64,000 nt of DNA. It comes from a virus. Below, one piece after another: positions 2,870 through 31,566 of this stretch. The stretch lies in IMG/VR virus record IMGVR_UViG_3300037851_001164, positions 3,904 through 67,903 of that record. One strand, 5' to 3'. Numbering within the stretch: position 1 is the stretch's first letter; each line of letters opens with the position of its first letter. Below the pieces are notes generated by a model. It was not told the origin of the DNA. It made no database searches and was given only the letters and a program-made list of their open reading frames with translations. Both the position numbers and the translations under genes were made by a program.

Positions 2870-4107
2870 CAGCGCTCCCAGTTGGCGTAGTCGTTACGCT
2901 CGGCCTTCGTGTCGCGGTCGTGCTTGTGCTTCCAGGTGCGCACCGCCGCCTTCCAGTCCCGCATCGGGCTCTTGCCCACCATCCAGCCCTTGGTGGCGTA
3001 GAAGTCCACGAACTCGCTGCCGTCGAGGCGAAAGCCGATGCTGCGCGCGTACTCCTCGACCTCGTAGGCGGTGGGGCGCTTCATCGACCTGGCACCGTTG
3101 ACGCCAGGCTCCGCGGCAGCCGCGGTCCCCGGGGTCGGCGCGTCCCCTGGCCGCTGGCGCGGCGTGCGCGGCAGCTCCGCGGGGCGCGCCCTGGCCTGGG
3201 CCAGGTGGTCGTCGATGAGCGCCAGCATCTCGGCCTCGCTGGGCGCCGGGCCCGCCGGTGCTCCGGCCGGCTGGCGGAGCGGTGCGGACGGACCCTGGGG
3301 AGCCCGCGGCAGCGGCTCTTCGGGGTTGCCTTCTTGCCCCGAAGGGGCGTCACCTACCTCCGGCGAGGGCGCAGCCCGAGACGCTACGGCCTCGCCCCCG
3401 GTCACGGTCCCGGTGGGTAGGGGGGGGCTATAGGGGGGGTTCTTGGATCTCCCTCTCCCTTTCTTAGCCGTGACAGGCCCGTGACAGGTGCGTGACTCCT
3501 CACAGCTTGTCACGCGTGACAGGTCGGTGACCGGCGTGTGACCTGGGCGCCCGGGATCGTCACTAGTCACCGGCGCCTCGCCGTGACCAGTCGCACCATG
3601 ACGCTCCCCAACCAGCTCTCTCAGTCTCGAGGTCGGCGTATCCCAGGACGGCACCTGCCCGCAGGCGCGCAGCACCTCGAACATGTGCCTGCGCTCGGCG
3701 CGCTCACGCTCCTTGCGCGCATTGGCAGACACCTGGGCGTCCTTGTAGCGCAGCCGCTCTTCCCACGCCTGCTCCACGATCTCCGCCACGGTGCGGTGGT
3801 ACAGCCGCCCGTCCCGGCACTTGATCCAGCCGCGCAGCGCCATCGCGCACACCTTGCGCCACTTCTTCAGGTCGCGGCCATACCCGGCCAACGCGGCCAG
3901 CACGCGCTCATCGTCCGGCAGGCTCCCGGCTGGCACCTGATGGAACGCGCGGCCCCACAGCACCAGTCCGGCGCGAAACTCGGCGTCGGTGGCCAGCGCG
4001 AAGAACTCGGAGTTGAACAGCCGGCCGAGATCTAGCTTCATCCACTGATAGCCTCTGAGGTCCACCTCGGCGGACACCAGCGGCTCGGGCAGCTCGGCCT
4101 GGCTCAT
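2866..4107 (-). CDS. Replication initiator (DUF1376/YdaU-like N-terminus, replisome-organiser C-terminus)
   Basis: WMKLDLGRL..SEF, VPAGSLPDDERVLA..AG, DGRLYH; C-terminal FVDFYATKGWMVGKSPMRDWKAAVRTW. Confidence 0.8.
   Translation of the reverse strand: MSQAELPEPLVSAEVDLRGYQWMKLDLGRLFNSEFFALATDAEFRAGLVLWGRAFHQVPAGSLPDDERVLAALAGYGRDLKKWRKVCAMALRGWIKCRDGRLYHRTVAEIVEQAWEERLRYKDAQVSANARKERERAERRHMFEVLRACGQVPSWDTPTSRLRELVGERHGATGHGEAPVTSDDPGRPGHTPVTDLSRVTSCEESRTCHGPVTAKKGRGRSKNPPYSPPLPTGTVTGGEAVASRAAPSPEVGDAPSGQEGNPEEPLPRAPQGPSAPLRQPAGAPAGPAPSEAEMLALIDDHLAQARARPAELPRTPRQRPGDAPTPGTAAAAEPGVNGARSMKRPTAYEVEEYARSIGFRLDGSEFVDFYATKGWMVGKSPMRDWKAAVRTWKHKHDRDTKAERNDYANWERW
3401..3602. repeat. GTGAC/GTCAC iteron cluster; candidate replication origin inside the initiator gene
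   Basis: GTGAC at 3470, 3481, 3492, 3516, 3527, 3538, 3583; GTCAC at 3401, 3509, 3559, 3566; two triplets at 11-bp period. Confidence 0.65.
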
Positions 4108-4589
4108 ACCATCTCCTCCAGCTCCGCACGCAGCCTCCTGGCCTCCAGGAACGCCTGGCGCTCGCGCTCCAGGTCCCGCGGCGAGAGGCGCTCCCCCCGC
4201 GCCCGCGCGCCCCTGGCGCAGGCGAGCACGGTCTCCTCGGCGCGCAGGCGCTGCTCGACGCAGGCGCGGGTGCGCGCCTGGTAGCGGTGGCGCCCGCCGC
4301 CCCAGGACTCGCGGTACAGGGCGCTGTCCGGGTAGAGCGCGCCCATGGTCAGGCCCACCGCGCCCAGCACGTCGGCCGGCGCGCAGCCGGCGTGGCAGTG
4401 GATCAGGATGATCCCGTCGGGGTCGAAGCGGATGGACAGCGAAGGGTCGTCATCGGCGTGCGCCGGGCAGCGGCAGGTGTAGTCGTCGGCACCCGCGCGG
4501 CGCACGCGCTCGAACCGGGCAAGGAAGTCCTGCCGGTCGATCATCCGCGGGCGCGGGGCGCTGACGTAGCGTGGCTGGCGTGCGCTCAT
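4104..4589 (-). CDS. Primase zinc-binding (CHC2-like) domain protein without TOPRIM
   Basis: CRCPAHADDDPSLSI...IHCHAGC; likely start MSARQ at 4589 (ATGA overlap). Confidence 0.75.
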   Translation of the reverse strand: MSARQPRYVSAPRPRMIDRQDFLARFERVRRAGADDYTCRCPAHADDDPSLSIRFDPDGIILIHCHAGCAPADVLGAVGLTMGALYPDSALYRESWGGGRHRYQARTRACVEQRLRAEETVLACARGARARGERLSPRDLERERQAFLEARRLRAELEEMV

Positions 4590-4795
4590 GCCCGCGCAAG
4601 CCCTCGCGCGCGCTCCATGCGCCGCACCTGCTCGGCCGAGCGCCGGGCGACCAGCCAGCGCTGGGCGGTGGCGGCCTCCTGCCGCGCCCGCGCCGAGGGC
4701 GCCGTGGCGAGCTCGACGCCGGCCTCCCGGATCAGGTCCTCGAGCAGCTCGTCGCGAGTGCCCAGGATCAAGTGCGGCAGCTGCCCGGGTCCCAT
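4586..4795 (-). CDS. Hypothetical protein
   Basis: Tiles the operon with an ATGA overlap; coding-like codon usage. Confidence 0.5.
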   Translation of the reverse strand: MGPGQLPHLILGTRDELLEDLIREAGVELATAPSARARQEAATAQRWLVARRSAEQVRRMERARGLARA

Positions 4796-4804
4796 CTCGC
4801 CGCC

Positions 4805-5071
4805 CTACCCGCGCGCCACCACCGGGCGCCGCGCCCAGATCTCGCGCACCCGCGCCTGCAGCTCCTCGCGCACGGCGCCGGGCGCGAGCCGCTCGATGGC
4901 CGCCCGGCGCCCGGCCCGCTCCGGCAGCGCCGCGATCTGCGCCGCCCGCGCGGCCAGCCAGCGCGCGAGGCACTCCCGCCGCTCCCGCGCCCAGCGCTCC
5001 TCGGTGGCTTGCACCGCGGGGTCGTCGCGCCAGCCCACGCCGCCCGTCCAGGTATCAACGCGGCCCATCAC
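4805..5071 (-). CDS. Hypothetical phage protein
   Basis: Fills the operon gap; helical, ERWARERRECLARW. Confidence 0.55.
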   Translation of the reverse strand: MMGRVDTWTGGVGWRDDPAVQATEERWARERRECLARWLAARAAQIAALPERAGRRAAIERLAPGAVREELQARVREIWARRPVVARG

Positions 5072-5270
5072 CGCACCCGCGCGCCGTCCAGGGCCGTGCC
5101 AGATACCAGCGCTGCAGGGCCCAGGATGCCTGCTCGGCCCGCACCCGCGCGGAGCGCTCGCGGCGCTCGGCGCGCAGGTCCTCGGAGCACCCGCAACGCG
5201 CAGTCCACACCGGGAGCCGGGTCGAGTCCCAGCGGCGGCGGGCTACACGCCGGGCCGTCGCCGGGGTCAT
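5055..5270 (-). CDS. Hypothetical protein
   Basis: ATG at 5270 overlaps the VRR-NUC stop codon. Confidence 0.4.
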   Translation of the reverse strand: MTPATARRVARRRWDSTRLPVWTARCGCSEDLRAERRERSARVRAEQASWALQRWYLARPWTARGCGDGPR

Positions 5271-5641
5271 GTCAGGTACTCCACCAGCACCGCCCGGCCC
5301 GCCTCCCAGCCGCGGCACACCTCGACGCGAAAGCCCTCGGCGCGCAGGCTCTCGATGGTCTCGCGCTGCTCGACCTCGACCCGTCCGCCCTGGCGGCGCT
5401 TCATCTCGATGTACAGCCCGTGATAGCCGGCCCGGGCGTGGGGCAGGAACAGGTCCGGGATGCCGGGGCGCACGCCCTGGCGCTGCAGTGCCCGGGCGGT
5501 GCCGATGTGGCGATGCCCGCCGTTGGGGATGGCGTGCAGGAGCTTCAGCGCCGGGTACGCGGCTTGCGCGAGCCGGGCCCACGCCACCAGCGCCTCCTGC
5601 TCGGCGGCCTCCAGCGCTTGCCCGCTCGATGGCCTGGGCAC
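5267..5641 (-). CDS. VRR-NUC domain nuclease
   Basis: HAIPNGGHR, GVRPGIPDL, LYIEMK, EQRETIESLRAEGFRVEVC. Confidence 0.88.
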   Translation of the reverse strand: MPRPSSGQALEAAEQEALVAWARLAQAAYPALKLLHAIPNGGHRHIGTARALQRQGVRPGIPDLFLPHARAGYHGLYIEMKRRQGGRVEVEQRETIESLRAEGFRVEVCRGWEAGRAVLVEYLT

Positions 5642-5646
5642 GGCCG

Positions 5647-5850
5647 CTACCGTCCCGCGCCGTCCCGGGCGGAGACCGTCGCGGGGCTCGCGCCGTCATG
5701 GCGCGTTGCCGCATGCTCGGCGACATGGGCGCGGATCAGCCGGCGCACGTACTCTGACAGGGGCCGGTCGTCCTCGCGGGCGAGCCGCTTCAGCGCCGTG
5801 TAGAGCTCGGCCGGGATCCAGACCCGCAGATCGTGATCGCAGGCCTGCAC
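5647..5850 (-). CDS. Ribbon-helix-helix (Arc/CII-like) DNA-binding protein
   Basis: LRVWIPAELYTALKRLAREDDRPLSEYVRRLI; start codon uncertain (GTG 5850). Confidence 0.6.
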   Translation of the reverse strand: MQACDHDLRVWIPAELYTALKRLAREDDRPLSEYVRRLIRAHVAEHAATRHDGASPATVSARDGAGR

Positions 5851-5883
5851 CTGCAGGCGCAGGCACCAACCGGAGGACCGTGC

Positions 5884-6174
5884 ATGACGCAGAAGACCTG
5901 GCCGCCCCGCCGCCGCGGGGTCAGCATCCAGATCGCCGCCGAGCCCGCCATCCTGGACTGCCCGGTGGTGGGCCACCGGGTCGCCCTGGTTATCGGCTAC
6001 CTCGCCTACCAGGCGCCGGCGACACGCGAGACGAGCGAGATGCCCGCCTGCTCGCACCTGGCCGAGTGCGGGCTCGCCAGCGCGGACACCGGCCGCCTCG
6101 ACCGCGAGCGGGCCGGGCGCGCCGGCTGCCCGCTGGCCGCGAGCCTGGGGGTCTGGCGGCCACCGGCGCGCTGA
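5884..6174 (+). CDS. Hypothetical Cys/His-containing protein, antisense to the cro operon
   Basis: GGAGG Shine-Dalgarno 7 nt before ATG 5884; high GC3 codons. Confidence 0.6.
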   Translation: MTQKTWPPRRRGVSIQIAAEPAILDCPVVGHRVALVIGYLAYQAPATRETSEMPACSHLAECGLASADTGRLDRERAGRAGCPLAASLGVWRPPAR

Positions 6175-6266
6175 GACGCTCATGCGGACTCCCCCCTTGG
6201 CCAGAAGCGACCCGGGATGCAGCCACACCCGGGGACCCGCTCGCCGCCCCCCGGAGCAGGCGCGGA

Positions 6267-6351
6267 TGGCCGACAGAGGAGGACTCGAACCTCCGACCCG
6301 CGGCCCCGGCGCCAGCTGGGCGGCAGGTCCCGGCGACCTGCCGGTCTGTCG
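6267..6351 (-). ncRNA. tRNA-like cloverleaf RNA with aberrant D arm and encoded CCA
   Basis: CGACAGA/TCTGTCG acceptor stem + G + CCA; T arm GGAGG-TTCGAGT-CCTCC; 8-9 bp hairpin in place of the D arm; 7-nt loop CTGGCGC. Confidence 0.6.
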
Positions 6352-6361
6352 GCAACAAGGA

Positions 6362-6616
6362 TCACGCAGCGGCCTCCCTGGCGCCAGCCGGCGCGGGCCC
6401 TGGGCCGTTGGCCGCGCCGTGCGCCGTCGGGCTGTCCTGGGCAGGCGGCATCCATTCGGCGGGAACCACGTCGGGACGCAGCAGCGCCAGCGTCTGCCGC
6501 CTGGCCCTGGGCACCCCATCATGCTGCCACTGCGACACCGCCTGCTTGGTGACCCCAAGAAGGCGCGCCACACAGGAGACCCCCCCGAGGCGCTCGATCA
6601 CGTTCGCGTCCGTCAT
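6362..6616 (-). CDS. cro: Cro-like repressor
   Basis: MTDANVIERLGGVSCVARLLGVTKQAVSQW HTH; divergent from cI. Confidence 0.85.
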   Translation of the reverse strand: MTDANVIERLGGVSCVARLLGVTKQAVSQWQHDGVPRARRQTLALLRPDVVPAEWMPPAQDSPTAHGAANGPGPAPAGAREAAA

Positions 6617-6623
6617 GGCGCTA

Positions 6624-6683
6624 GTCCAGCACACCGAACCCTCTCAGTCAAGCAGACTCACCCGTTTGTCCAGTAGGCTTGAC
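6624..6683. promoter_or_regulatory. OR: three 16-bp operators (6624-6639, 6647-6662, 6668-6683) with PR/PRM elements
   Basis: GTCCAGcacaCCGAAC, GTCAAGcagaCTCACC, GTCCAGtaggCTTGAC; TTGACT on the minus strand at 6651-6646; TAGGCT at 6674-6679. Confidence 0.7.
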
Positions 6684-6686
6684 GGC

Positions 6687-7397
6687 ATGACTATGGGGGA
6701 CCGGATCCGCGAGAGGCGCCTGCGCGCCAGGCTCACGCAGCTCGCCCTCGCGACGCGCCTCGGCGTGACCAAGTCGGCGGTGTCCCAGTGGGAGAGCGGG
6801 GACATCAAGACGCTCAAGGGCCCAGCGCTTGTCGCCCTGTGCCGGGAGCTCGGGGTCAGTGAGTCGTACATTCTGGACGGATCCGGGCCCGCAGCCAGAA
6901 CGGCACCGCCACCGGCGGGCCCGCAGCGGCGTGGCCCGGACAGCGCCACGCCGGCCACTGCCGCGCGCGACACCAGGCGGATCCCGGTGATCAGCTACAT
7001 CCAGGCCGGTGAGCCGCGCGAGGTGGTGGACGACTACGCGGCCGGCGACGGATTCGAGACCCTGGGCGTGGACCCCGATCTGGCCGCCAGGCTGGGCCCG
7101 CACGCGTTCGGGCTGCGGGTGGAGGGAGAGAGCATGCTCCCTGAGTTCCGGCCCGGGGACTACGTGATCGTGGATCCCGACGCACCTGTGCGCCCTGGCG
7201 ACATGGTGGTCGCGAAGCTGGAGCGCGATAACGCCGCCACCCTCAAGAAGTACCGCTCGCGGGGCGTAGACGCCGAGGACCAGCCGGTGTTCGAGCTGGT
7301 GCCCCTGAACGACGACTACCCGACCGTCACCGTGAGCGGGGCCAACCCCGGGCGGCTCGTGGGGCCCGTGGTGGAGCACCGCAGAAGGCTCAGGTAA
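6687..7397 (+). CDS. cI: CI-like repressor (HTH plus S24 autoprotease)
   Basis: GDRIRERRLRARLTQLALA..LGVTKSAVSQWESG; Ala-Gly site IQAG; LRVEGESM (Ser) and ATLKK (Lys). Confidence 0.95.
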   Translation: MTMGDRIRERRLRARLTQLALATRLGVTKSAVSQWESGDIKTLKGPALVALCRELGVSESYILDGSGPAARTAPPPAGPQRRGPDSATPATAARDTRRIPVISYIQAGEPREVVDDYAAGDGFETLGVDPDLAARLGPHAFGLRVEGESMLPEFRPGDYVIVDPDAPVRPGDMVVAKLERDNAATLKKYRSRGVDAEDQPVFELVPLNDDYPTVTVSGANPGRLVGPVVEHRRRLR

Positions 7398-14721: not shown

Positions 14722-15686
14722 TGGGCCGCCACCGCCAGCACAATCGCCATCTGCCGCCACGGGTGTTCCTGCGGCACGGGGCCTATTACCACGTCGTGCA
14801 CGGGGTTTGGACCCGTCTCTCCGACCGGCTCGATCTAGCCCTGGCCAGGTGGGCGGAGATCGAGGGTCCGCCCTCCCGAGGCTCGACCGTGGGAGCTGCC
14901 ATCGACCGCTACCAGCTGGAGGCCTTGCCCCGGCTTGCCGAGCGCACCCGCCAGGACTACGTGCTGAGCCTCGGGCGCCTGCGAACGGTGTTCGGGGAGG
15001 TCGAGCTGACCGACGTGCGCCCGATGCACGTCGCCCAATACCTCGACCGACGCTCTGCCAAGGTCTCGGCGAACCGCGACGTAGCCGTGCTCTCTAGCGT
15101 CTTCGCCATGGCCATGCGCTGGGGCTGGTGCGATGCCAACCCTTGCCGCGGGGTGCGACGTAACCCCGAGCGGGCCCGCGAGCGCTACCTGTCCGACACC
15201 GAGCTGCAGGCGTTACGTGATGCGGCCGACGCGCAGTGGCAGTGCATCATCGACCTGGCCTACCTGACCGCCCTGCGGCGCGGCGACCTGATGGCCCTGC
15301 GCCTGGGGGATATCGAGCCAGACGGTCTTGCCGTTACCCACCGCAAGACGGGGGCACGCCGGCTCTACACCATGACGGCCGAGCTGAAGCTCGTCCTGGA
15401 CCGGATCCGGAGGCTGCGCCGCCGGGTGGGCACCCTGCTGCTCTTCGCCGCTCGTAACGGCCAGCCGTACAGCGCCGGCGGCTGGGAGAGCGCCTGGCGG
15501 CGCCTGCGGACCCGCGCGGGCATTACCGACGCCCACTTCCACGATCTGCGTGCCAAGGCCCTGACCGACGCCAAGCGCGTCGGCGGGCTCGACTACGCCC
15601 AGGCTCTGGGTGGGCACGAGCGGCGGGACACGACCGAGGGCTACGTGCGGGCGCGTGAGACGGTGCCGGTGCGTCCGCTACGCTGA
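14721..15686 (+). CDS. int: Tyrosine recombinase (phage integrase)
   Basis: TALRRGD (R), HRKTG (K), HFHDLRAK (HxxR), LGGHE..TTEGY (H, Y). Confidence 0.95.
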   Translation: MGRHRQHNRHLPPRVFLRHGAYYHVVHGVWTRLSDRLDLALARWAEIEGPPSRGSTVGAAIDRYQLEALPRLAERTRQDYVLSLGRLRTVFGEVELTDVRPMHVAQYLDRRSAKVSANRDVAVLSSVFAMAMRWGWCDANPCRGVRRNPERARERYLSDTELQALRDAADAQWQCIIDLAYLTALRRGDLMALRLGDIEPDGLAVTHRKTGARRLYTMTAELKLVLDRIRRLRRRVGTLLLFAARNGQPYSAGGWESAWRRLRTRAGITDAHFHDLRAKALTDAKRVGGLDYAQALGGHERRDTTEGYVRARETVPVRPLR

Positions 15687-21805: not shown

Positions 21806-22926
21806 CAGCCGGCCACCACCGTGATGGTGCCGGGCATGATCTTGCCGCTCCCGCCGGGGGCCACGTCGCCCGCGGGGGCCGCCAGGCGCGCGTTGTATAC
21901 GCCAGAAACGGCCATGACCCGTCCGATCATCTCGGCCACCAGCGCCTTCTCTCCCACCTCCAGGGCGGTGAGATAGGCGCCCAGGACCTCGGCCACCGGG
22001 GCCATGAGATCCGCGGCCTCGTGGTCGGCCTCGGCGGTCACGGTGATGGTGACCGGCTCGTGGCGCACGGTGACGGCGGCCACGGCGCACACCACTCCCG
22101 CGGCCTTCCAGCCCATCACCCGGGTGCCGTCGGGGGCCACGTAGCCGTCGATGACCCGCTGTGCCTCGGCCACCAGCGCGGCCGAGGCCCCGTCCACCCC
22201 GTTCCACACGTAGCAATTGCAGTAGCCCAGCGGCAGCGCGCTGTTGCTGAGGTACGGCTCGATCACCTTGGCGCTCACCACGCGCTCGCCGATCCCGCCC
22301 AGCTCGTCGTACAGGGCCACGGTGCGCGCCCCGTACTCGATGGCGGCGAGCGGGGCGCGCGAGAGCGCCGCGACGTACTGGGCGAAGCGGATCTTGCGCT
22401 CGGCATCGGTCTCCTCGTCGCGGCCGGTGACGAAGGCCGCGTCGTTGACCACCGACACCCCGGAGATGGGCGCGTCCAGGGCGGTGATGGTGCCGGCGGA
22501 GGCGTTGCCCGCCACCCCGGACGTGTCGGCTGCCACCCGGGCGCTCACCTGGGTCTGCCCCTGGGCGATGACCGCCTGGGTCTGGGTGGCGTAGCCCACC
22601 GCGCCCCCGGGCACGCGCACGACAGTGCCCGCGGGGATGACGACGGCCGTCGTGGCCGCAGAGGCCAGATAGAGGCGCACGTCGCCGTAGGCGGCGGCCG
22701 CCGGCAGGCGGGCGAAGTCGAAGCTGGTGTAGATGGCGACCGGGATCGACTCCTTGAGCCCGAAGAACATCTGCTGGTAGAGCTCGTCGATCTCCACCGC
22801 CGGGGCCTCGACCAGGGTGCGCGCCACCGAGCCCACGTTGAAGTCGGTCAGGCGCGACTGCACGGCGCGCAGGTGGTTGACCATCGACGCCACGATCGAG
22901 CGCCAGTCCTTAAGCTGGAACGCCAA
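21805..22926 (-). CDS. Baseplate J/gp47 family protein
   Basis: TDFNVGSVARTLVEA, GVAGNASAGTI, TGRDEETDAERKIRF; TTG start. Confidence 0.9.
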   Translation of the reverse strand: MAFQLKDWRSIVASMVNHLRAVQSRLTDFNVGSVARTLVEAPAVEIDELYQQMFFGLKESIPVAIYTSFDFARLPAAAAYGDVRLYLASAATTAVVIPAGTVVRVPGGAVGYATQTQAVIAQGQTQVSARVAADTSGVAGNASAGTITALDAPISGVSVVNDAAFVTGRDEETDAERKIRFAQYVAALSRAPLAAIEYGARTVALYDELGGIGERVVSAKVIEPYLSNSALPLGYCNCYVWNGVDGASAALVAEAQRVIDGYVAPDGTRVMGWKAAGVVCAVAAVTVRHEPVTITVTAEADHEAADLMAPVAEVLGAYLTALEVGEKALVAEMIGRVMAVSGVYNARLAAPAGDVAPGGSGKIMPGTITVVAG

Positions 22927-23524
22927 CGCTCACCTCCTTGCCGCCTACCGCCATGGCCTGAACCTCGATGTGCAGCGCATCGCCCTGGACCTCGACCCGG
23001 GCGCGCGGCACGTCCGCCACCCGCGGGTCGGCGCGCAGTGCCCGGGCCACCAGGTGGCGCCCCAGCAGCGCGGTGCGCGCGGTGGAGCGTCCGCCCAGCA
23101 GCCGGTACACGTCGCAGCCGTAGAGCGGGTGGAAGGCCAGGTCCCCGGGCTGGGTGCGCAGCCGGTGCTCCAGGGCCTGCACCAGGTTCGTGGTGCCGGT
23201 GACGGTGGAAAGGTCCCCGCTCTCGGCCTCGAGCAGCCCCTTGGCCAGATATACGTCGGTGCCATAGAGCTCGCTCGGGTCCGCCACCCCGCTGGGCCCG
23301 CGTGCCCCGGAGGGCAGCCGCAGCTCGGCGCCGGTGAGGAGCACCCGGGGCGTGGCCAGCGCCGGGTCGTCGGTCAGATAGGGCGGCAGCAGGCCGTTGA
23401 GCCAGGCGATCTCGTGCCAGCGCCCGGCGTCGCCCAGCTCGCGCAGCGCCAACGCCTGCAGGGTGTCACCGCGCCGCGTGGCCACGCGCCGGAAGCCCGC
23501 GAGGCGGCGCTCGAAGCGGCTCAT
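22910..23524 (-). CDS. LysM-like plus gp25/GPW-like baseplate wedge protein
   Basis: RRGDTLQALALRELGDAGRWHEIA..N; NLVQALEHRLRT.PG.L..HP.YG. Confidence 0.75.
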   Translation of the reverse strand: MSRFERRLAGFRRVATRRGDTLQALALRELGDAGRWHEIAWLNGLLPPYLTDDPALATPRVLLTGAELRLPSGARGPSGVADPSELYGTDVYLAKGLLEAESGDLSTVTGTTNLVQALEHRLRTQPGDLAFHPLYGCDVYRLLGGRSTARTALLGRHLVARALRADPRVADVPRARVEVQGDALHIEVQAMAVGGKEVSVGVPA

Positions 23525-24783
23525 GCCGCCCACACCGTGGCCAGCTCCCCGGTGCGCGTGCGCAGGGCCTCGCCCACCCGCGCGAGCACCGCCTCGGGGA
23601 GCGGCAGGTTGACGGTGATCCCTTCGGCGACGGTGCGCAGCTGCGCCCCCACGGCGAGCGCATCCACCGGCACCGGCACGGTGAGCACGTCGCGCGCGAG
23701 CGAGCGCAGGGCCTCGCCGGCCGCGAGCGACACGTCCACCACCGGGCGGGCCACCGCGTCCACCGCGGGGACCGCCAGGGGCGAGGCGTAGATCGCCGCG
23801 AACGGGTTGACCCCGGCCAGCGGGCTCCCCGGCAGGCCGCCGCCGGTGGACGAGCAGCCGGAGGCGCCGAGCAGATCCGAGAAGTCGGGCATGCGCCCGA
23901 TGAGATCGAAGCCGGTGCGCAGCAGACACCAGGCCTCGTGGAAGGTGGCGGCGATGCGCCGGGCGAGCGCGTGCACGTGCACCGCCGCGGCATAGGGCAC
24001 GGCCAGGAGCTGGAAGGCGTTGCGCGCCGCCGCCTGCACCGTCTGCGCCACCTGCAGCAGCGGCAGGGCCGCGGCGTCGAGCACCCCGAGCCCGGCAGCC
24101 GCCACCGATTGCACCTGGGCGAGCAGCGCAGCGCTGGCCCCGAGAATGGCGTTGGCCGGCCCGGCCAGGGCGCCCAGCGCCCCGGTCACCCCGGCCAGGC
24201 CCGTCTGCCGGGCGATGATCCCGTCGAGCGCCGGGGCCGCCGCCAGGTACCGGCCGCCCGGATGGGCGATGGCCTCCACCAGCGGATCGGCCACCAGCAT
24301 CGCGAGCTGCTCGGACACCGGCCGCAGCACGGTCATCACGATCTCGTACTGGGCGAGCAGCGGGCGCGACTTGTGCCGACGCAGGGTGAAGCGGTCAGGG
24401 GCCACCACCTCGGCCACCTCGTCCAGGTGGTCGTAGAAGACGAGCTCCACCGAGTCGGGGCTGCGGCCCGCCTCCACGTTCGCCGCGCGCAGCCCGTGCC
24501 AACGGGGGAAGACGGCGTCCCTCAGCTCCTGGAACAGGGCCAGGCCGTCGCCGGAGGCGGTGCCCCGCCACCCCGTGGTGCCGCGGATGGTGATCTGCGA
24601 CACTCCCGGGCCGAAGGTGTCGGCCCAGGCCCCGCCCAGCGTTTGGTGCACGGTGATGCGCGAGGGATCGGTCTTGGTCAGCTCCTCGGGGCGGATGTGG
24701 AACGCAAGCTCGGCCTCGACGCCGCCCCCGGCGGCATCCCAGAGCAGGAACCCGATGGGCCGGTCCTTCTGCGACGCTGGCAT
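23521..24783 (-). CDS. Baseplate/tail-tube initiator-like structural protein
   Basis: RPEELTKTDPSRITVHQTLGGAWADTFGPGVSQITIRGTTG; first gene behind a late-promoter motif. Confidence 0.55.
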   Translation of the reverse strand: MPASQKDRPIGFLLWDAAGGGVEAELAFHIRPEELTKTDPSRITVHQTLGGAWADTFGPGVSQITIRGTTGWRGTASGDGLALFQELRDAVFPRWHGLRAANVEAGRSPDSVELVFYDHLDEVAEVVAPDRFTLRRHKSRPLLAQYEIVMTVLRPVSEQLAMLVADPLVEAIAHPGGRYLAAAPALDGIIARQTGLAGVTGALGALAGPANAILGASAALLAQVQSVAAAGLGVLDAAALPLLQVAQTVQAAARNAFQLLAVPYAAAVHVHALARRIAATFHEAWCLLRTGFDLIGRMPDFSDLLGASGCSSTGGGLPGSPLAGVNPFAAIYASPLAVPAVDAVARPVVDVSLAAGEALRSLARDVLTVPVPVDALAVGAQLRTVAEGITVNLPLPEAVLARVGEALRTRTGELATVWAA

Positions 24784-24789
24784 GGCGCC

Positions 24790-24805
24790 AGCGTAGGGTC
24801 ACGAC
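24790..24805 (-). promoter_or_regulatory. Candidate late promoter GTCGTGAC-N2-TACGCT
   Basis: -10-like hexamer ends 6 nt upstream of ATG 24783; motif recurs at 41400, 41956 and 51798. Confidence 0.6.
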
Positions 24806-24966
24806 CGGGGGAGGGGCAGGAGGGCGGTGCCCCCTTGATGGCTGCGCTTAGCGCGAAATCGAGTGCAACCGAGGAGCTAGATGCGGTAGTACCGCACGTC
24901 CGGGTCTGGGCGGGGGGGCGCCGGGTAGCCGGCGTCCCTACCGCGGAGCAGTTTGAGGGCCGCGCG

Positions 24967-25218
24967 ATGCGTCTGATTCTCATAGCACTTTCCGTCATCT
25001 TGCTGACCGCCTGCAGCCGATATGATGCCGAAGTAGGCTATTACGAGGGCGGATCTGAAAAGTGGGATATTTGGGGTGATTTTCGTTCGCTGGATGAGTG
25101 TAGAGACGCCGCAATCGCTCAGTTCAACTTTTACAACCGGAAATCGGAAGGGCGTGCGTTCTCGTGGGCATGCCTGAAGAAAAGTCGTGGCGGCGGGTAT
25201 GAGAGCCGCCATCGATAG
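24967..25218 (+). CDS. Lipoprotein (integron cassette ORF 1)
   Basis: Signal peptide with lipobox LTAC; followed by an attC site. Confidence 0.75.
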   Translation: MRLILIALSVILLTACSRYDAEVGYYEGGSEKWDIWGDFRSLDECRDAAIAQFNFYNRKSEGRAFSWACLKKSRGGGYESRHR

Positions 25219-25238
25219 TGAAATCACTCCATGAAACC

Positions 25239-25310
25239 GCCTAACAAGCGCTTGGAATCCGACCTTCTGGCCGCTGCGCAACCCTCGGCGCCTCAAGCGC
25301 GACGTTAGGC
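25239..25310 (+). other. Integron attC site 1
   Basis: GCCTAAC ... GTTAGGC perfect outer boxes; GCGCTTG/CAAGCGC inner boxes; 72 bp. Confidence 0.85.
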
Positions 25311-25322
25311 CGAAACTAAGAA

Positions 25323-25547
25323 ATGCGAATCGACAAGATCATATTTACAGTCTCTTACACGCTCGTCATCCTGGGTTCCGGCGGCATGATCGCATTTGCC
25401 TGCAAGTTCCCTCACTTCACAGGTATTTGGGAACTGAAACATACTCAAGAAAGGTTTCTCTGGCTGAATGGCTACCAAGTTTGGGTGTACTCCTGGCTTG
25501 CGATTTTGCTTGGTACCGTTGGCCAGATAGTGGCCACATGGTGCTAA
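25323..25547 (+). CDS. Small two-TM membrane protein (cassette ORF 2)
   Basis: Starts 12 nt after GTTAGGC; two hydrophobic helices; low GC. Confidence 0.7.
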   Translation: MRIDKIIFTVSYTLVILGSGGMIAFACKFPHFTGIWELKHTQERFLWLNGYQVWVYSWLAILLGTVGQIVATWC

Positions 25548-25576
25548 CCATAACGGTCCTTGGTCGGAGGGCGCTA

Positions 25577-25951
25577 ATGGCAGGGGAAAGGATAACTCGG
25601 ATATTGAAGCCGAAGAGCAGCCTCTCGGCTGAGCAGATTGCTCAGATGACCGACGGAGAAGCCTGGGCATGGCTGTATACACACTTCCCACCAAAGACGA
25701 AACGACATAAGAAAAATATTGCCGAGATATGCTTTACTGGTTTTTCCGGGAACGAGCGCGCGGTTTTGGAACACGAGGCACAACAAGCCCACCTTGATGT
25801 TGTTAAGTCCGTAACGAAACAGTTGCGATATCTTGTTGCAGGACCGAACGCTGGACCGACGAAGCTCCGGAAGGCAACCAAACAGGAAGTCGTAGTTCTG
25901 AGCTTGGAGCAATTTCGTACAATGCTGGAAACTGGCGGGCTCCCCGCTTGA
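25577..25951 (+). CDS. BRCT-domain protein (cassette ORF 3)
   Basis: ICFTGFS, VVKSVTKQLRYLVAGPNAGPTKLRKA..QEVVVLSLEQF, resembling the DNA-ligase BRCT domain; start MAGER. Confidence 0.75.
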   Translation: MAGERITRILKPKSSLSAEQIAQMTDGEAWAWLYTHFPPKTKRHKKNIAEICFTGFSGNERAVLEHEAQQAHLDVVKSVTKQLRYLVAGPNAGPTKLRKATKQEVVVLSLEQFRTMLETGGLPA

Positions 25952-25958
25952 CATTATG

Positions 25959-26031
25959 GTTTAACTAAGGCGCTCTAACCGAGCGCTCCACCGCTGCGCG
26001 GTTTCGCGCTGGCTGAGCGTGGTCGTTAACC
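25959..26031 (+). other. Integron attC site 2
   Basis: GTTTAAC ... GTTAACC (one mismatch), GCGCTC/GAGCGT inner boxes, ACCGC-TGC-GCGGT terminal hairpin. Confidence 0.7.
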
Positions 26032-26057
26032 GACAAGCGATAGTCTGCGGTCCCCCA

Positions 26058-26324
26058 ATGACGAAGCACCAGAAGACGCTGCAGCAAATTCTTCTCGCCA
26101 GATCGGACGCAAACACGTCCTTCGCCGATCTATGCGGTCTGCTGAAGGCGCTTGGCTTCGAGGAGCGTATCCGGGGTGATCATCACATCTTCAGCCGAGC
26201 GGGAGTGGAGGAGATCATCAACCTGCAGCCGGTAGGAGCCAAGGCGAAGGCATATCAGGTAAGGCAGGTTCGCAACCTCGTTCTAAGGTACGGGTTGGGA
26301 GATCGTGATGAACGTGAAGTATGA
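26058..26324 (+). CDS. hicA: HicA family toxin
   Basis: FADLCGLLKALGFEERIRGDHHIF..GVEEIINLQP..AKAYQVRQV. Confidence 0.88.
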   Translation: MTKHQKTLQQILLARSDANTSFADLCGLLKALGFEERIRGDHHIFSRAGVEEIINLQPVGAKAKAYQVRQVRNLVLRYGLGDRDEREV

Positions 26325-26520
26325 GGTGATCATCTACTGGAGCCCGCAGGATGCTGCGTTTCTTGCTGAGGTGCCGGAGCTCCCGGGGTGCATGGCGGAC
26401 GGGGCGACCCACCAGGATGCGCTGGCGAACCTGGAAGTAGTTGTCGAGGAATGGATCGCCACAGCTCGGGAGCTCGGCCGGCCAGTCCCGGAGCCGCGTG
26501 GTCGCCTCATGTTCGCCTAG
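26308..26520 (+). CDS. hicB: HicB family antitoxin (short form)
   Basis: YEVIIYWSPQDAAFLAEVPELPGCMADGATHQDAL..PVPEP. Confidence 0.9.
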   Translation: MNVKYEVIIYWSPQDAAFLAEVPELPGCMADGATHQDALANLEVVVEEWIATARELGRPVPEPRGRLMFA

Positions 26521-26756
26521 CCGAGTGAGGGCGGGTGTCCTGCAGGATCCGGTAGCTCGTGGATCCGCTGGAGCGCTTCGGCGAAGCTCAGCCCCAACGG
26601 CTCCACGACATGGATCGCCGGCAGCTCGGCCAGCCAGCCGCCGCCATGGCCGCACATCTCCATCGGCGCGGTAGCTGGCTCCCACCACACGCGGCCGACC
26701 GTGTAGCCGTGAGCCTCCAGGGCCGCGCGGAGGATGTCTACCCGCCTGCTCATCAC
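26517..26756 (-). CDS. Hypothetical phage protein
   Basis: Coupled to the spike gene by overlap. Confidence 0.6.
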   Translation of the reverse strand: MMSRRVDILRAALEAHGYTVGRVWWEPATAPMEMCGHGGGWLAELPAIHVVEPLGLSFAEALQRIHELPDPAGHPPSLG

Positions 26757-27475
26757 GGCCCCTCCGGGTGCCCAGACGGGATGTGCGGCACGTCGATGCC
26801 GTGCTCGGTGGTGCCGCCGGCGGCGCCCGCCACGTAGCTGTCGGTCTGCCAGGTGGTGCCGCCCGCCCAGGTCTCGCGGCTGCCCTTGCCGTGCACATCC
26901 TGCTGGACGTAGGTGCGCCCGTGGATCTCCACCCCATCGCCCTCCAGGCGCAGCACGCCATCGGCCCGGATATAGAGGTTGCCAGCCGGGTCCAGGGTGA
27001 TGCTGGCCACGGGCCCGGCGCCCAGGGACACGCGCAGCCAGGGCTGGCGCGCGGTGTTGCGGCCGATGGCCCAGGCACCGTTGGCGTCCTGGCCGGAGAG
27101 GTCCTCGTGGGCCGGGTCCTCGCCCAGGCGCACAAACGCCCCCGAGGGGTGCGCCAGCTCCACGTTGCCCGCCTCGTCCACGGTCCAGTACACGTCCGAG
27201 GGATGGCGGTAGACCGTGCGGTGGCGCTCGGCGAAGGCCATCTGGCCGGTGCTGGGCGGGAACAGGAAGCCCAGCACGATGGGCCCGCCGCGGGCGTTGG
27301 CCACGACCGCGGTCTGGCCACGCTCGGGCAGGTCGTTGACCCCGGCGTCGGCCGCGGCCGACGGGGCCATGACCGGCACCCGCGGCACCCGGCAGCCGTC
27401 GTCCAGGTAGCTGATGTCCACCTCCCGGCGGCCCGGGTGCACACGCTCGACGCGGGCCAGGCGCAGCTCACTCAT
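26753..27475 (-). CDS. Baseplate spike / gpV-like protein
   Basis: OB-fold-like N-terminus (ARVERVHP..VDI, PIVLGFL), beta-repeat region YRHPSDVYWTVD..GNVELAHPSG. Confidence 0.7.
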   Translation of the reverse strand: MSELRLARVERVHPGRREVDISYLDDGCRVPRVPVMAPSAAADAGVNDLPERGQTAVVANARGGPIVLGFLFPPSTGQMAFAERHRTVYRHPSDVYWTVDEAGNVELAHPSGAFVRLGEDPAHEDLSGQDANGAWAIGRNTARQPWLRVSLGAGPVASITLDPAGNLYIRADGVLRLEGDGVEIHGRTYVQQDVHGKGSRETWAGGTTWQTDSYVAGAAGGTTEHGIDVPHIPSGHPEGP

Positions 27476-28910
27476 ACACGCCTGGCCTGCCCTCGAGCCA
27501 GTACGGCGAGCGCTGCTCGCGCACCCGGGTGAGGAACCCGGTGCCGCGCTCGACCCGACAGGTGGTCGTGTAGCCCCGGAACGGGGCCAGCTGGTGGTCG
27601 ACCGCGGTCACGTAGTAGCGGGCGGTGAGCCCGCCGCGGCGCAGCGTCAGGTAGCGCCCGGGCTTGAGCCGCGGGCTGCCCTTGACCACGATGCTCCCCT
27701 CCTCCCACAGCACGTTGTCACGGTTCAGGAGCTTCAGCAGCTCGATGCGCGAGCGCTGCCAGTCGAGATCATTGTCGGCGTAGACGCGCCCCTGGCCGTC
27801 TGGCGGGTGGCCGGTATTGGCGTCGTGGGTCTGCAGCGAGCGCACCGCCAGCTCGCGCACCCCGTAGAGCGCCGGGTCGTCGTTGGGGTAGCCGGTGTCG
27901 AGCACCGTGCCCCGGGCCATGGCCTCCAGGCGCTGCAGGTCGTGGGAGTACAGGGCACCGCGGGCCAGCTCCACCCAGTAGAAGTTGGCCACGTGGTGGT
28001 CGGTGCGCGCGAGCTGCAGGCTCTTCACGTCCTCGGCGCTCACCGTCATGCCCTCGGGATCGTCCACGTTGGGGTCCTGGGCATCGCCGATCCACTGCCC
28101 CGCCATGTCCTGGTAGGGTAGCGGGCGGTAGACCAGGTACACCCCGTCCGCGCGGTCCTCGACGAAGAGCTCGTTCCAGGGCAGGTCCGCGACGCTGGCC
28201 AGCAGCCCCCACAGGTCCCCCTCGTACATGGCGATCGAGTCCGGGGTGATGCGCCCGCGCAGCACGCTGGCGTCGGTGCCCATGCGCATGGTGCCCAGCT
28301 CGCCCCCGTGCAGGGAGGACAGCCACAGCCGGTCGAGCTGCGGGTTGACGATGCGCTCCACCGCCTGCTGCATGAAGCTCGAGGCCGGCAAGAGCGCCAC
28401 CTCCATCCCGGTCGCCTCCTGCAGCCGGAAGGTGCCGAGCACGTCGTGGCCGGTGGCCATCCAGACCCGGAAGGACAGGTGGATGATCTGCAGGATCTTG
28501 CCGTAGTCCTGGCCGGAGACCACCACCACGCGCATGGGCCGGCCGTCGGCGCCCATGGTCTCGGGGCGCGCCACCTCGGACACCCAGCCGCGCATGACCA
28601 GCGGCAGCTCGCCCTCCGGGGCCGGGTCGCGGGCCATGCGGATGGCGACGTGGTCCATGGGCTCGACGAGCCCGTACAGGGTGTCGGCCAGGTCGTCGCG
28701 GATGCGGTCGCCGAAGGTGATGACGAAGCCGCCGGCGGGCTCGCGGATCCCCTTGTGCACCCGCACCTCGCCGCGGTCGCCCAGGTACGGGGTGAGGTCG
28801 ATCTGCTGATTCGCCCCCTGATAGCGCTCGGACGCGCCGTCGGCAGGCGAGCGGCCGACGTTCTTGGTCAGGATCACCTGGACCCGCGGGGTGTAGGTGC
28901 GAATAGTCAT
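27468..28910 (-). CDS. Baseplate hub protein
   Basis: Lies between tape measure and spike; C-terminal GSIVVKGSPRLKPGRYL, YYVTAVDH; start MTIRT at 28910. Confidence 0.7.
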   Translation of the reverse strand: MTIRTYTPRVQVILTKNVGRSPADGASERYQGANQQIDLTPYLGDRGEVRVHKGIREPAGGFVITFGDRIRDDLADTLYGLVEPMDHVAIRMARDPAPEGELPLVMRGWVSEVARPETMGADGRPMRVVVVSGQDYGKILQIIHLSFRVWMATGHDVLGTFRLQEATGMEVALLPASSFMQQAVERIVNPQLDRLWLSSLHGGELGTMRMGTDASVLRGRITPDSIAMYEGDLWGLLASVADLPWNELFVEDRADGVYLVYRPLPYQDMAGQWIGDAQDPNVDDPEGMTVSAEDVKSLQLARTDHHVANFYWVELARGALYSHDLQRLEAMARGTVLDTGYPNDDPALYGVRELAVRSLQTHDANTGHPPDGQGRVYADNDLDWQRSRIELLKLLNRDNVLWEEGSIVVKGSPRLKPGRYLTLRRGGLTARYYVTAVDHQLAPFRGYTTTCRVERGTGFLTRVREQRSPYWLEGRPGVYE

Positions 28911-28914
28911 GGGG

Positions 28915-31566
28915 TCAGCGCAGGAGCCCTGCGGCGGTGGGCCGGCCGATACGCAGCGTCGGCGCCACGGCGGCGGCCAGGGTCTCGCCGCGCGGGTCCT
29001 GCAGGGTGACCGCCACGTCCACCCGGTGCTGCTGGGCGGTGGTGTAGGCGGAGAGCCGGTCCAGATAGCCGCGAGTCTCCTCGGGCAGGTGCTCGCGCCA
29101 GGCTCCGCCCCAGCGCTCCACGGCGCGATCCATGCGCCCCGGGCCCCAGTTGTAGGCGGCCAGCGCCTTGTCCCAGGCGCCGAACTGATCACGCAGCTCG
29201 TCCAGGTAGCGAGCGGCCGCCCGGCTCGACTGCGCCGGGTCGAAGCGGTCGGTGACCCCGAGGTGGCGTGCGGTCCCGGGCATGAGCTGGAACAGGCCGG
29301 CGGCCCCGGCCCCGGAGACGGCGCGCGGATTGAAGCCGCTCTCGACCTTGGCTACGCGCTCGAGCAGCCCGGGCGGCAGGTCGTGGCGCGCCTCCAGGTC
29401 CTGCCACAGGGCGCGCAGTGCCGGCGGGGCCTCGGGGCGGCGCCGGTGGCGGTGGCCGCGCGGGGTGTCTGGTGGGTCCTGCTCGGGTGGCCGCGGTGCG
29501 CGGGTTGCCGGGGTGGGCGCGGGGCGCCGCGCGAGGTCCGGGGGCGCGCGGCTCACCAGCGCCGGGTCGGGCACAGCGGCTGGCTCGATAGTGCCGCGAT
29601 AGGGCGTGCCGCGCGCCAGGGACTCTGGTACTGGGGGCGGCTGCGCAGCATGCGCCTGGGGCGCCTCGCGCGCGGGTGAGCCAGTGGTGGACCTCCCGGT
29701 TCTCTCGTTATCCGGGGTAATAGTGGGAATCTCGGCTGTGGCCTTGGTCCTGGGCGGGGCAGGCGCCTTCTCCCGCGGCTCGGCCACTGTCGGCTCTGCT
29801 GCAGCAGGCTCTGGCTGCGGTGCTTCGTCCTTCTCCCCCCGCCCCCGCCACCAGCTCGCGATGCCCTGTCCAATCAGGGCCGGCGGGGCCATCGGCCCCA
29901 GCATGAGCTTGCCGGCCATGCCGGCGGTGGAGTCCGGACGGCTCACCACATCGGCCACGCCGAGCACCTTGCCCAGGGCCTGCATCACCGGCACCACGGC
30001 ACTGCGCAGGGCATCGAGCGGGGCGTAGAGCTTGTCGCCCACGTCCATCGTGGCCCGCTGCACGTCAGTCAGGGTAGCCTCGTGCACCGAGCCCGGGGTC
30101 TCGACCTTGCCCTTGGCGGCCAGGCGCCGGGCCTCGTCCAGGTCATCGGGCCGGGTGGCGGCCAGGCGCGCCAGGTCGGCCCAGGCGCTGGGCGCCACGT
30201 CGCGCTCGTTGATGCCGGCGCGATCCAGCATCGCGGTGAGCTTGCCCCAGCCGCCCTCGCCCAGGCTCTGCTGGGCTTCGGCCAGCCCCAGGGCCTGGGA
30301 GCGGCCCACGCCCAGCAGCCGGTGCAGCACGTCGGCCATCTGCTCGGGCGGCAGGTCGCCGTAGCGCTCGCGCACCTGCTCCATCACCAGCTCGCCGATC
30401 TGCCGGCCCTGGTACTGCCCGAAGAAACCTTTCTCGAGCTCTAGCGCCGACTGGTACACCGACAGCGGCCGATGACGCGCCAGGGCCTCGTGCAGGAACA
30501 GGCGCGATGCCTCCCCTGCCCCGCCACCGGCACGGACCGACTCGTCCACCTGCCCGAGCAGCCCGATCCCAGCCGTGCCGGCGAGCCCCGGGCGCCCGGT
30601 GGCGGCCATGGCCGCGAGCATCCGCATGTAGTCTTCGGCCTGCCAGGGCATGGCCGCTGCGGTCGTGGTCTGGCTGTAGCGCTCGGCCCAGCGGGTGAGC
30701 GCCTCGGTAAGCTCGCCGGCCCGGCTCCACTGCCCGCCGGCCTGCACCCCCTCGGCCACGATGCGCGAGAGCTGGCGCGCGTCGATGCCGGCGAACTGGG
30801 CGCGCCCCGCGGCATCGGCCAGGCGCAGCGGGGACACCCCGAAGCCGCGGGCCAGCCCGCCGGCGGCCCGGGCCTGCTCGCTCACGTCCTCGGCGGTGGT
30901 GGGCCGGGCGTTACGCTGGAAGGCCTCGGCCAGCGCGATGGACTCGCGCGTGGTGAGCGAGAGCCCCTCGCCGGCTGACAAGATCTGCCGGCGGAAGGCG
31001 TCGAAGTCCGGGGTCAAGGTGGCGAAGCTACGGGCCAGGTGGTCGAGCGCCACCGCGTCCTGGCCGGCCGCGTCCGCCAGCCCCTTGAGCGCCCCCACGC
31101 CGTAGCCGATGCCGAGCAAGCTCAGCATCTGCGGCAGGCCGCGCCCGAGCATGGCGGCCATGGTGCCGCCGGCCTCGCCGCCCGCGCCCCCGGCGAGCGG
31201 GGCCTGGCCCTCCCAGGCGGTGCCGCGCACCGCCTGCTGCTGCACCTGCTGGCGCAGGAACTCGCCATGGGCCCGGTCGCGGTACAGGCGCGCGAAGTCC
31301 TGCTCCCACCACGGGCGCTCGGCCTGCCCCGTGACCTCCAGGCGCTCGCGCAGCCCCCGGTAGCGTGACTGCTGCAGGAGCTGCCGGTAGCGGTCCTGGG
31401 TCAGGTCGGCAAGCTCGGAGGCCTCCTGCAGCCCGGGCAGGGAGAGGTCGAGATTCTGGTAGTCGCGCGCGGTCTGGCCCAGCTCGCGCAGCTTGCGCAC
31501 GAAACGGTCCAGCGAGGGGATGGCGCCGGAGACATCGGCGCCGACTCGGATCGAGACATCAGCCAC
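28915..31566 (-). CDS. Tape-measure protein with C-terminal lytic transglycosylase (SLT)
   Basis: Helical N-terminal region; VAKVESGFNPRAVSGAGAAGLFQLMP, ALAAYNWGPG. Confidence 0.85.
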   Translation of the reverse strand: MADVSIRVGADVSGAIPSLDRFVRKLRELGQTARDYQNLDLSLPGLQEASELADLTQDRYRQLLQQSRYRGLRERLEVTGQAERPWWEQDFARLYRDRAHGEFLRQQVQQQAVRGTAWEGQAPLAGGAGGEAGGTMAAMLGRGLPQMLSLLGIGYGVGALKGLADAAGQDAVALDHLARSFATLTPDFDAFRRQILSAGEGLSLTTRESIALAEAFQRNARPTTAEDVSEQARAAGGLARGFGVSPLRLADAAGRAQFAGIDARQLSRIVAEGVQAGGQWSRAGELTEALTRWAERYSQTTTAAAMPWQAEDYMRMLAAMAATGRPGLAGTAGIGLLGQVDESVRAGGGAGEASRLFLHEALARHRPLSVYQSALELEKGFFGQYQGRQIGELVMEQVRERYGDLPPEQMADVLHRLLGVGRSQALGLAEAQQSLGEGGWGKLTAMLDRAGINERDVAPSAWADLARLAATRPDDLDEARRLAAKGKVETPGSVHEATLTDVQRATMDVGDKLYAPLDALRSAVVPVMQALGKVLGVADVVSRPDSTAGMAGKLMLGPMAPPALIGQGIASWWRGRGEKDEAPQPEPAAAEPTVAEPREKAPAPPRTKATAEIPTITPDNERTGRSTTGSPAREAPQAHAAQPPPVPESLARGTPYRGTIEPAAVPDPALVSRAPPDLARRPAPTPATRAPRPPEQDPPDTPRGHRHRRRPEAPPALRALWQDLEARHDLPPGLLERVAKVESGFNPRAVSGAGAAGLFQLMPGTARHLGVTDRFDPAQSSRAAARYLDELRDQFGAWDKALAAYNWGPGRMDRAVERWGGAWREHLPEETRGYLDRLSAYTTAQQHRVDVAVTLQDPRGETLAAAVAPTLRIGRPTAAGLLR

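Follow-up and report, generated by a model that had tools for sequence, protein, structure and literature searches.

An island of about 1.7 kb in the tail module of an uncultured freshwater phage is, we think with fair confidence, a fragment of a bacterial integron cassette array lodged in a variable accessory-gene slot, and the array it was cut from was probably a chromosomal integron. The phage is represented by IMG/VR virus record IMGVR_UViG_3300037851_001164, a linear sequence of high GC content (70,376 bp, ∼77% complete), of which a stretch of 64,000 nt (positions 3,904–67,903 of the record) was analysed; this stretch is called the window, and the coordinates below are positions in it. 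The island (24834–26538) is encoded on the plus strand within a minus-strand tail module and contains two intact attC sites, three cassettes and the stub of a group II intron. GC content drops from 0.72–0.75 in the surroundings to 0.50–0.60 across ∼24950–26520, and GC at third codon positions (GC3) is 0.54–0.78 for the island genes versus 0.84–0.95 for the flanking phage genes. A first-pass annotation had described a low-GC plus-strand island opposite to late transcription, with open reading frames (ORFs), attC sites and the hicAB genes in the order ORF–attC–ORF–ORF–attC–hicAB; GC, GC3 and gene layout all agree with it. The interval it delimited, 24967–26520, does hold the island but is too short, as follows from the points where homology ends, from the intron stub and from a half site. 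Contigs and loci fetched as carriers of homologues, from metagenomes and genomes, are designated by L-numbers (L151–L212 are IMG/VR contigs).

By sequence and by model score, both attC sites are genuine. The covariance model used here (R1) was seeded with 16 aligned sites from loci that contain homologues of ORF3, the third gene of the island, and none of the seeds came from the window. The seed arrays had been spotted by scanning for RYYYAAC...GTTRRRY pairs; examples are L032, with four repeats of 129–132 nt, and L028, in which three sites bracket single genes. Covarying L-box pairs are present among the seeds (RNAalifold), and the architecture of the model is canonical, with an R box, a spacer and an L box with bulges. 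When the whole window was searched on both strands with filters off, R1 matched at exactly two places, attC1 (36.7 bits) and attC2 (32.8 bits), on the plus strand only. The next best match in the window reaches only 10.8 bits, and no third or zeroth attC appears in it even at E up to 10. Control searches yielded no site above 25 bits besides a seed site (53 bits) in 660 kb of genomic loci and zero matches at E up to 0.5 in 541 kb of other viral contigs, and the two sites score 22–26 bits over the background of window and controls. The covariance-model check proposed in the first-pass annotation, run with our own model, thus finds both sites significant. An Rfam search of the sequence returned no attC-family match, its only relevant result being a weak match to a group II intron.

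The boxes of attC1, a site of 72 nt, are exactly GCCTAAC/GTTAGGC, as had been noted at first reading. Its strand asymmetry is clear, with 10 bits in the reverse orientation versus the score given above for the plus strand, and folding of its bottom strand has a z of –2.6. When five genomes were scanned for the exact arrangement GCCTAAC N45–75 GTTAGGC, only one site was found, which lies beside the intI gene of a Sphaerotilus metagenome-assembled genome (MAG). In attC2 (73 nt) R'' and R' are complementary at 6/7 positions, the bulged C and A are at canonical top-strand (model) positions, and the sequence shares 83% identity over 52 nt with a site in the array L062. This second site had also been recognised correctly, although its R'' had been placed slightly too far to the right. 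In the array-bearing loci every R1 match is on the gene strand, and many of the new sites directly adjoin ORF3 homologues. Because the attC sites of L139 and L146, two loci with an integrase nearby, are in canonical orientation, divergent from intI, the cassettes of the window are in normal, not inverted, orientation.

No gene for an integron integrase (IntI) was found in the 70.4-kb record, where the best TIGR02249 score is 17 bits versus a cut-off of 265; the absence of intI, first remarked for the window, therefore extends to the whole record. With two attC sites on the same strand within 4 kb of each other and no integron integrase in the record, the island is a cluster of attC sites lacking an integron integrase (CALIN) in the sense of Cury et al. 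2016, who require at least two such sites within 4 kb and no IntI nearby (IntegronFinder, 10.1101/030866). The earlier description of a CALIN of true integron cassettes, hicAB among them, inside the tail/baseplate module is upheld. It is not a complete integron, as there is no IntI and the left end of the array is the intron stub abutting phage DNA. Like sedentary chromosomal integron arrays and CALINs (10.1101/030866), the island has RYYYAAC...GTTRRRY attC sites between promoterless small genes of unknown function and toxin–antitoxin cassettes. Unlike chromosomal arrays (10.1101/030866), it is phage-borne, its cassettes are 10–20% lower in GC than the replicon, and it is without attI or Pc.

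All three units of the island recur elsewhere with the same G|TTRRRY boundary. The ORF1 product has the lipobox LTAC, two conserved Cys residues and a conserved C-terminal GGYESRHR. Its homologue in L143 is preceded by GTTATGC just ahead of the shared leader and followed by an attC (32 bits) 21 nt past the stop codon, an offset as in the window, while the homologue in L141 has an attC upstream. The ORF2–ORF3 pair is 86% identical at the DNA level to that of L002/L094, an Acidiferrobacterales MAG with an integron integrase (498 bits) on another contig, and this homology sets in with the initial G of GTTAGGC (R' of attC1) and extends to one base past the ORF3 stop codon; identity to L095 is 72–77%. 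Homologues of ORF3 are flanked by attC sites, always co-oriented, in L028, L032, L033, L062, L066, L092 and others, and ORF3 alone makes up a single-gene cassette in L028, L033, L059, L062, L087 and others. The hicAB cassette is 83% identical to L145 and 79% to L146, and in all three sequences a shared GAC(C/A)AG leader, a conserved 5' untranslated region, comes after GTTAGGC or GTTAACC. In L146 the pair is bracketed by attC sites of 33.6 and 29.9 bits and has beside it a divergent integrase, which scores 348 bits on TIGR02249 with its C-terminal part and 66 bits with its N-terminal part; L146 is thus a real integron. The suggested search for the cassettes in bacterial integrons has thus produced homologues with shared boundaries and, for hicAB, an integron that contains the pair. 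As a separate observation, intI of L146 is split into ORFs of 71 and 247 aa (by a frameshift or a sequencing error), and the first two cassettes of this locus (4154–6516) are both HicA/HicB-like pairs.

Two other readings of the middle cassette were considered and rejected. The TGCTAAC at the end of ORF2 had been put forward as a possible remnant of a deleted attC, but homologues read TGC CAA AC(A/C) and then a stop codon, and it is a mutated codon in a conserved pair; since L094 and L095 carry CAA there, the ORF2 stop codon of the window arose by a CAA to TAA change. Nor are ORF2 and ORF3 two cassettes fused by loss of an attC, for the pair occurs in conserved form in L094, its two genes separated by a short spacer, and is present in L095 as well. 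The latter is a non-integron context, with a spacer of ∼75 nt without attC features and a chromosomal gene upstream. On L094 (1–8000) two good attC sites are seen 5.5–6.5 kb downstream of the ORF2–ORF3 homologue, intI being on another contig, and the region may be a decayed or rearranged array.

Neither end of the island is at the G|TT crossover point of IntI. On the left, homology to other ORF1 cassettes ends at ∼24950, and the window has a structured element where L143 and L141 have R'. This element (24834/24872–24948) matches group II intron 3' ends in 275 plasmid records at ∼80% identity (blastn), where the matching stretch adjoins ltrA or lies under it; in one example, from a plasmid of Pseudomonas putida, the match begins at the 3' end of ltrA and extends just past it. 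The weak match to Rfam RF00029 (24872–24947, 17 bits) covers domains V–VI. Neither a reverse transcriptase (intron-encoded protein) nor the 5' domains were found, so the element is not a full group II intron but a 5'-truncated one on the cassette-sense strand, and it sits in place of the R' core of the attC expected before the ORF1 cassette. When the island was compared with GenBank phages by blastn, the only match was one of 74 nt, to this stub. On the right, homology to L145 goes 18 nt past the hicB stop codon, its last position, 26538, falling in the loop of a hairpin that L145 has in full. At the same place L146 has a canonical attC, the R'' of which (GCCTAAC) overlaps the hicB stop codon, and the window has GCCTAGC overlapping the stop codon.

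Group II introns with truncated 5' ends have been reported from integrons and CALINs, as has an intron of the same orientation just downstream of an attC (PMC7923331), whereas classical group IIC-attC introns are on the bottom strand, opposite to the cassettes (PMC3001079). The stub is like the introns of both reports in being a group II intron 3' end (domains V–VI) at an attC of a cassette array. Unlike the classical IIC-attC introns, it is on the cassette-sense strand and is cut off at the very junction with phage DNA. Relatives of the stub, with 13–15 differences in ∼107 nt, were noticed on short contigs from the same freshwater samples at depths up to 50x, matching only 24834–24948; similar introns are therefore common in co-occurring organisms.

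Island and phage are joined in more than one assembly. In two runs, Logan contigs of 19.4 kb (depth 47) and 8.2 kb (depth 18) extend over 22000–29000 with zero differences and with one even depth each, a third sample contains an identical 169-nt contig across both left junctions (24817–24985), and a fourth yields pieces that are identical to parts of the island and of the flank. It should be noted that the two best runs may represent the source samples; an independent assembler and extra samples are therefore what this comparison offers, not full independence. No excised or alternative form was seen among the contigs, although contigs cannot show rare variants; the joints in them had short sides (20–27 nt), and none linked attC1 to attC2.

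Searches of viral and genome contigs with the tail-tube-initiator protein revealed no close relatives of the phage. The closest phages found (L147/L148 and L149) have ∼45% identity in the tube initiator and share the order of six neighbouring genes. The place between the baseplate-hub and tail-tube-initiator genes is taken in L147/L148 by an opposite-strand gene of 283 aa and in L149 by a gap of 548 nt. Because related phages hold different content there, this slot is a variable site for accessory genes (morons). The comparison with related phages that had been recommended thus showed a differently filled slot, but not an empty one. In L147 the 283-aa gene (6079–6930, minus strand) is lower in GC; in L149 a pRha-family gene (4055–4780) lies one position upstream of the gap (5440–5987).

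As both ends are cut where IntI does not act, capture by illegitimate recombination, as for other phage morons, would be the most likely origin of the island, rather than capture mediated by IntI. The fragment would then consist, in order, of the 3' stub of a group II intron inserted at the upstream attC core, cassette 1 with attC1, cassette 2 with attC2, and cassette 3 with half of its downstream site. Of the proposal that the phage captured host cassettes, the integron origin therefore stands, given the shared boundaries, but the IntI route is not supported, the ends being off the crossover. With IntI supplied by a host, recombination of attC1 with attC2 could cut out cassette 2, and new cassettes could enter at either site; ORF1 and hicAB would be fixed, and only the middle cassette would be excisable. 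It is rather unlikely, in our view, that the two intact attC sites serve as a docking platform through which the phage swaps the middle cassette or gains cassettes in IntI-expressing hosts and so carries cassettes between bacteria with different arrays. We would give slightly less credit still to an account in which IntI did both, a host enzyme having inserted a multi-cassette circle at a secondary attG-like site, with routine swapping since. The two complete and correctly oriented attC sites speak for it, as do the recombination of phage-borne attC sites with IntI1 (PMC9892861) and the insertions catalysed by IntI outside att sites that are described in a preprint (10.1101/2022.09.11.507474). 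However, the left junction falls within the group II intron stub, the right one halves a site where a complete attC should abut the target, and both the missing excised or alternative form and the missing integrase gene noted above are at odds with it.

An ordinary moron island, in which the hairpins are terminators or chance palindromes, would be in keeping with the unrelated accessory genes that related phages carry in the slot and with BRCT-like genes, of the kind that ORF3 represents, in 62 other viral contigs without attC. This idea is already largely refuted, and we hold it very improbable, given the margin of the R1 scores over background, the GTTRRRY boundaries common to cassettes of real integrons and the resemblance of attC2 to the L062 site. 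An assembly chimera of a bacterial integron contig and a phage contig might be suspected from the sharp GC break and from the metagenomic origin of the record, and it had been named beforehand as one way in which the island could prove spurious. It is the least credible of these explanations, close to being dismissed: the unitig-based Logan contigs of the two runs span the whole 7 kb, identical short contigs come from two further samples, one piece crossing both left junctions, and phage genes stand on both sides in conserved order. With contigs from four samples, junction-bearing ones among them, the island is not an assembly chimera.

Several points weigh against a fragment of an integron array settled in a moron slot. 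Our attC calls come from a covariance model built for the purpose, with seeds filtered by RYYYAAC/GTTRRRY, and not from the model of IntegronFinder. In the model alignment, attC1 shows a less canonical L box: two of its pairs are mismatched, the first bulge holds a G, and the unpaired spacer is short. In attC2, R' deviates from GTTRRRY at one position. The closest ORF2–ORF3 homologue, in L094, has GTTAGGCC upstream and no recognisable full attC on either side, and no potential donor, an array with the cassettes in this order, was found. Nor was a close phage relative with an empty site, the nearest being ∼45% identical at the protein level. With the record ∼77% complete, IntI elsewhere in the phage is not strictly excluded. 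Finally, there is no sigma-70-like promoter upstream of ORF1, and expression of cassettes 1 and 2 is uncertain.

Table 1. Features of the island and of the adjoining phage genes (window positions)
Feature	Position	Strand	Evidence
Tail-tube-initiator gene, 420 aa, left flank	23521–24783	–	Pfam PF23980, E 3e–15; syntenic homologues with ∼45% identity in L147, L149
Group II intron stub, 5'-truncated, domains V–VI	24834–24949	+	blastn, ∼80% identity to intron 3' ends; weak Rfam RF00029
ORF1, predicted lipoprotein, 83 aa, cassette 1	24967–25218	+	53 homologues, no Pfam family
attC1, R'' GCCTAAC, R' GTTAGGC	25239–25310	+	Model R1, 36.7 bits, E 5.5e–6
ORF2, hydrophobic, probably a membrane protein, 74 aa, first gene of cassette 2	25323–25547	+	ORF2–ORF3 pair conserved in L002/L094, L095
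ORF3, predicted three N-terminal helices and BRCT domain, 124 aa, second gene of cassette 2	25577–25951	+	Pfam match below cut-off; AF2/Foldseek
attC2, R'' GTTTAAC, R' GTTAACC	25959–26031	+	Model R1, 32.8 bits, E 4.3e–5
hicA toxin gene, 88 aa, cassette 3	26058–26324	+	Pfam HicA_toxin, E 2.7e–5
hicB antitoxin gene, 70 aa, cassette 3	26308–26520	+	Pfam UPF0150, HicB_lk_antitox above cut-off
Half-site remnant after hicB: R''-like GCCTAGC and 5' arm of hairpin, 3' arm missing	26515–26538	+	Homology to L145, L146
Phage-side ORF, 79 aa, convergent with hicB	26517–26756	–	ORF call; no homologue in L147 or L149
Baseplate hub/spike-like gene, 240 aa, right flank	26753–27475	–	Weak Phage_base_V match; homologues with 39–44% identity in L147, L149

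The functions of the cassette genes (Table 1) are predictions. ORF1 belongs to a conserved lipoprotein family and has no Pfam match. For ORF3, the Pfam BRCT match is below the cut-off (E = 8.5e–4), and an AF2 model (predicted local distance difference test score, pLDDT, 82) matches the BRCT domains of LigA and RFC1 in Foldseek with E = 1e–4; the model indicates three helices followed by a LigA/RFC1-type BRCT domain. The BRCT part also aligns with the last 70 residues of PDC-S48, a candidate defence protein in PADLOC (E = 2.8e–11), a resemblance at the level of the domain only. PADLOC had no match for the other island genes, and no cassette matched a known defence protein family as a whole. BRCT relatives of ORF3 (33–51% identity, mostly over residues 34–123) were also seen in the 62 other viral contigs (L151–L212), none with a nearby attC, and stand-alone BRCT proteins seem to be a common phage accessory gene. 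The third cassette has, at domain level, the make-up of a type II HicAB toxin–antitoxin system, a predicted HicA-fold gene followed by a HicB gene that overlaps it (26308–26324). The HicA_toxin match has 24.6 bits, below the cut-off of 27, whereas UPF0150 (40 bits) and HicB_lk_antitox (29 bits) are above theirs; hicA has 935 homologues. Because the island genes face away from late transcription, their expression, if any, would be moron-like, for example in a lysogen. Of these genes, hicAB would be the likeliest to have a promoter of its own, and to have a stabilising effect on the island or a role in defence.

The tail module reads, on the minus strand, tape-measure/SLT protein, 574-aa protein, 240-aa hub-like protein, 79-aa ORF, island, tail-tube initiator (PF23980), sheath initiator and Baseplate_J. 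The final seven codons and the stop codon of the 79-aa ORF fall within island-derived sequence, and either its end was replaced by the insertion or it is not a real gene. Elsewhere in the window, a 61-nt palindrome (ACGTAAC...GTTACGT, 15158–15218) lies inside the frame with the tyrosine-recombinase-like match of the record and scores 10.5 bits by R1; it could be an att or a regulatory site.

Phage-borne cassette arrays are already published, and no new kind of system is opened here. Qi, Rajabal, Ghaly, Tetu and Gillings 2023 (PMC9892861) described 17 CALINs in 10,705 phage genomes, reported that IntI1 recombines phage attC sites and suggested illegitimate recombination as the capture route in phages. 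Like theirs (PMC9892861), the island is an attC cluster without IntI and with co-oriented cassettes, and one of their cases includes a two-gene toxin–antitoxin cassette. Unlike theirs, it is carried by an uncultured freshwater phage of high GC, within the tail/baseplate module, and is known here from sequence alone; it has only two intact sites, and both its ends are visibly truncated. In position, opposite orientation and GC deviation, and in the different cargo that relatives carry in the slot, it is like phage morons. It is unlike the usual ones in that its cargo appears recognisably cut from an integron array and keeps functional-looking recombination sites.

Here a phage in nature carries integron cassettes together with recombination sites that are intact, a clean example that supports the published idea that cassettes spread with phages. 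The anatomy of the island is instructive in that an intron stub and a half site mark the ends, and such truncated ends would indicate how fragments of this kind enter phages, namely by illegitimate capture into a moron slot and not by integrase action. The cassettes themselves, one with a conserved small lipoprotein, one with a membrane protein paired with a BRCT protein and one with hicAB, are uncharacterised but recurrent in the environment, and they are candidates for superinfection exclusion or defence.

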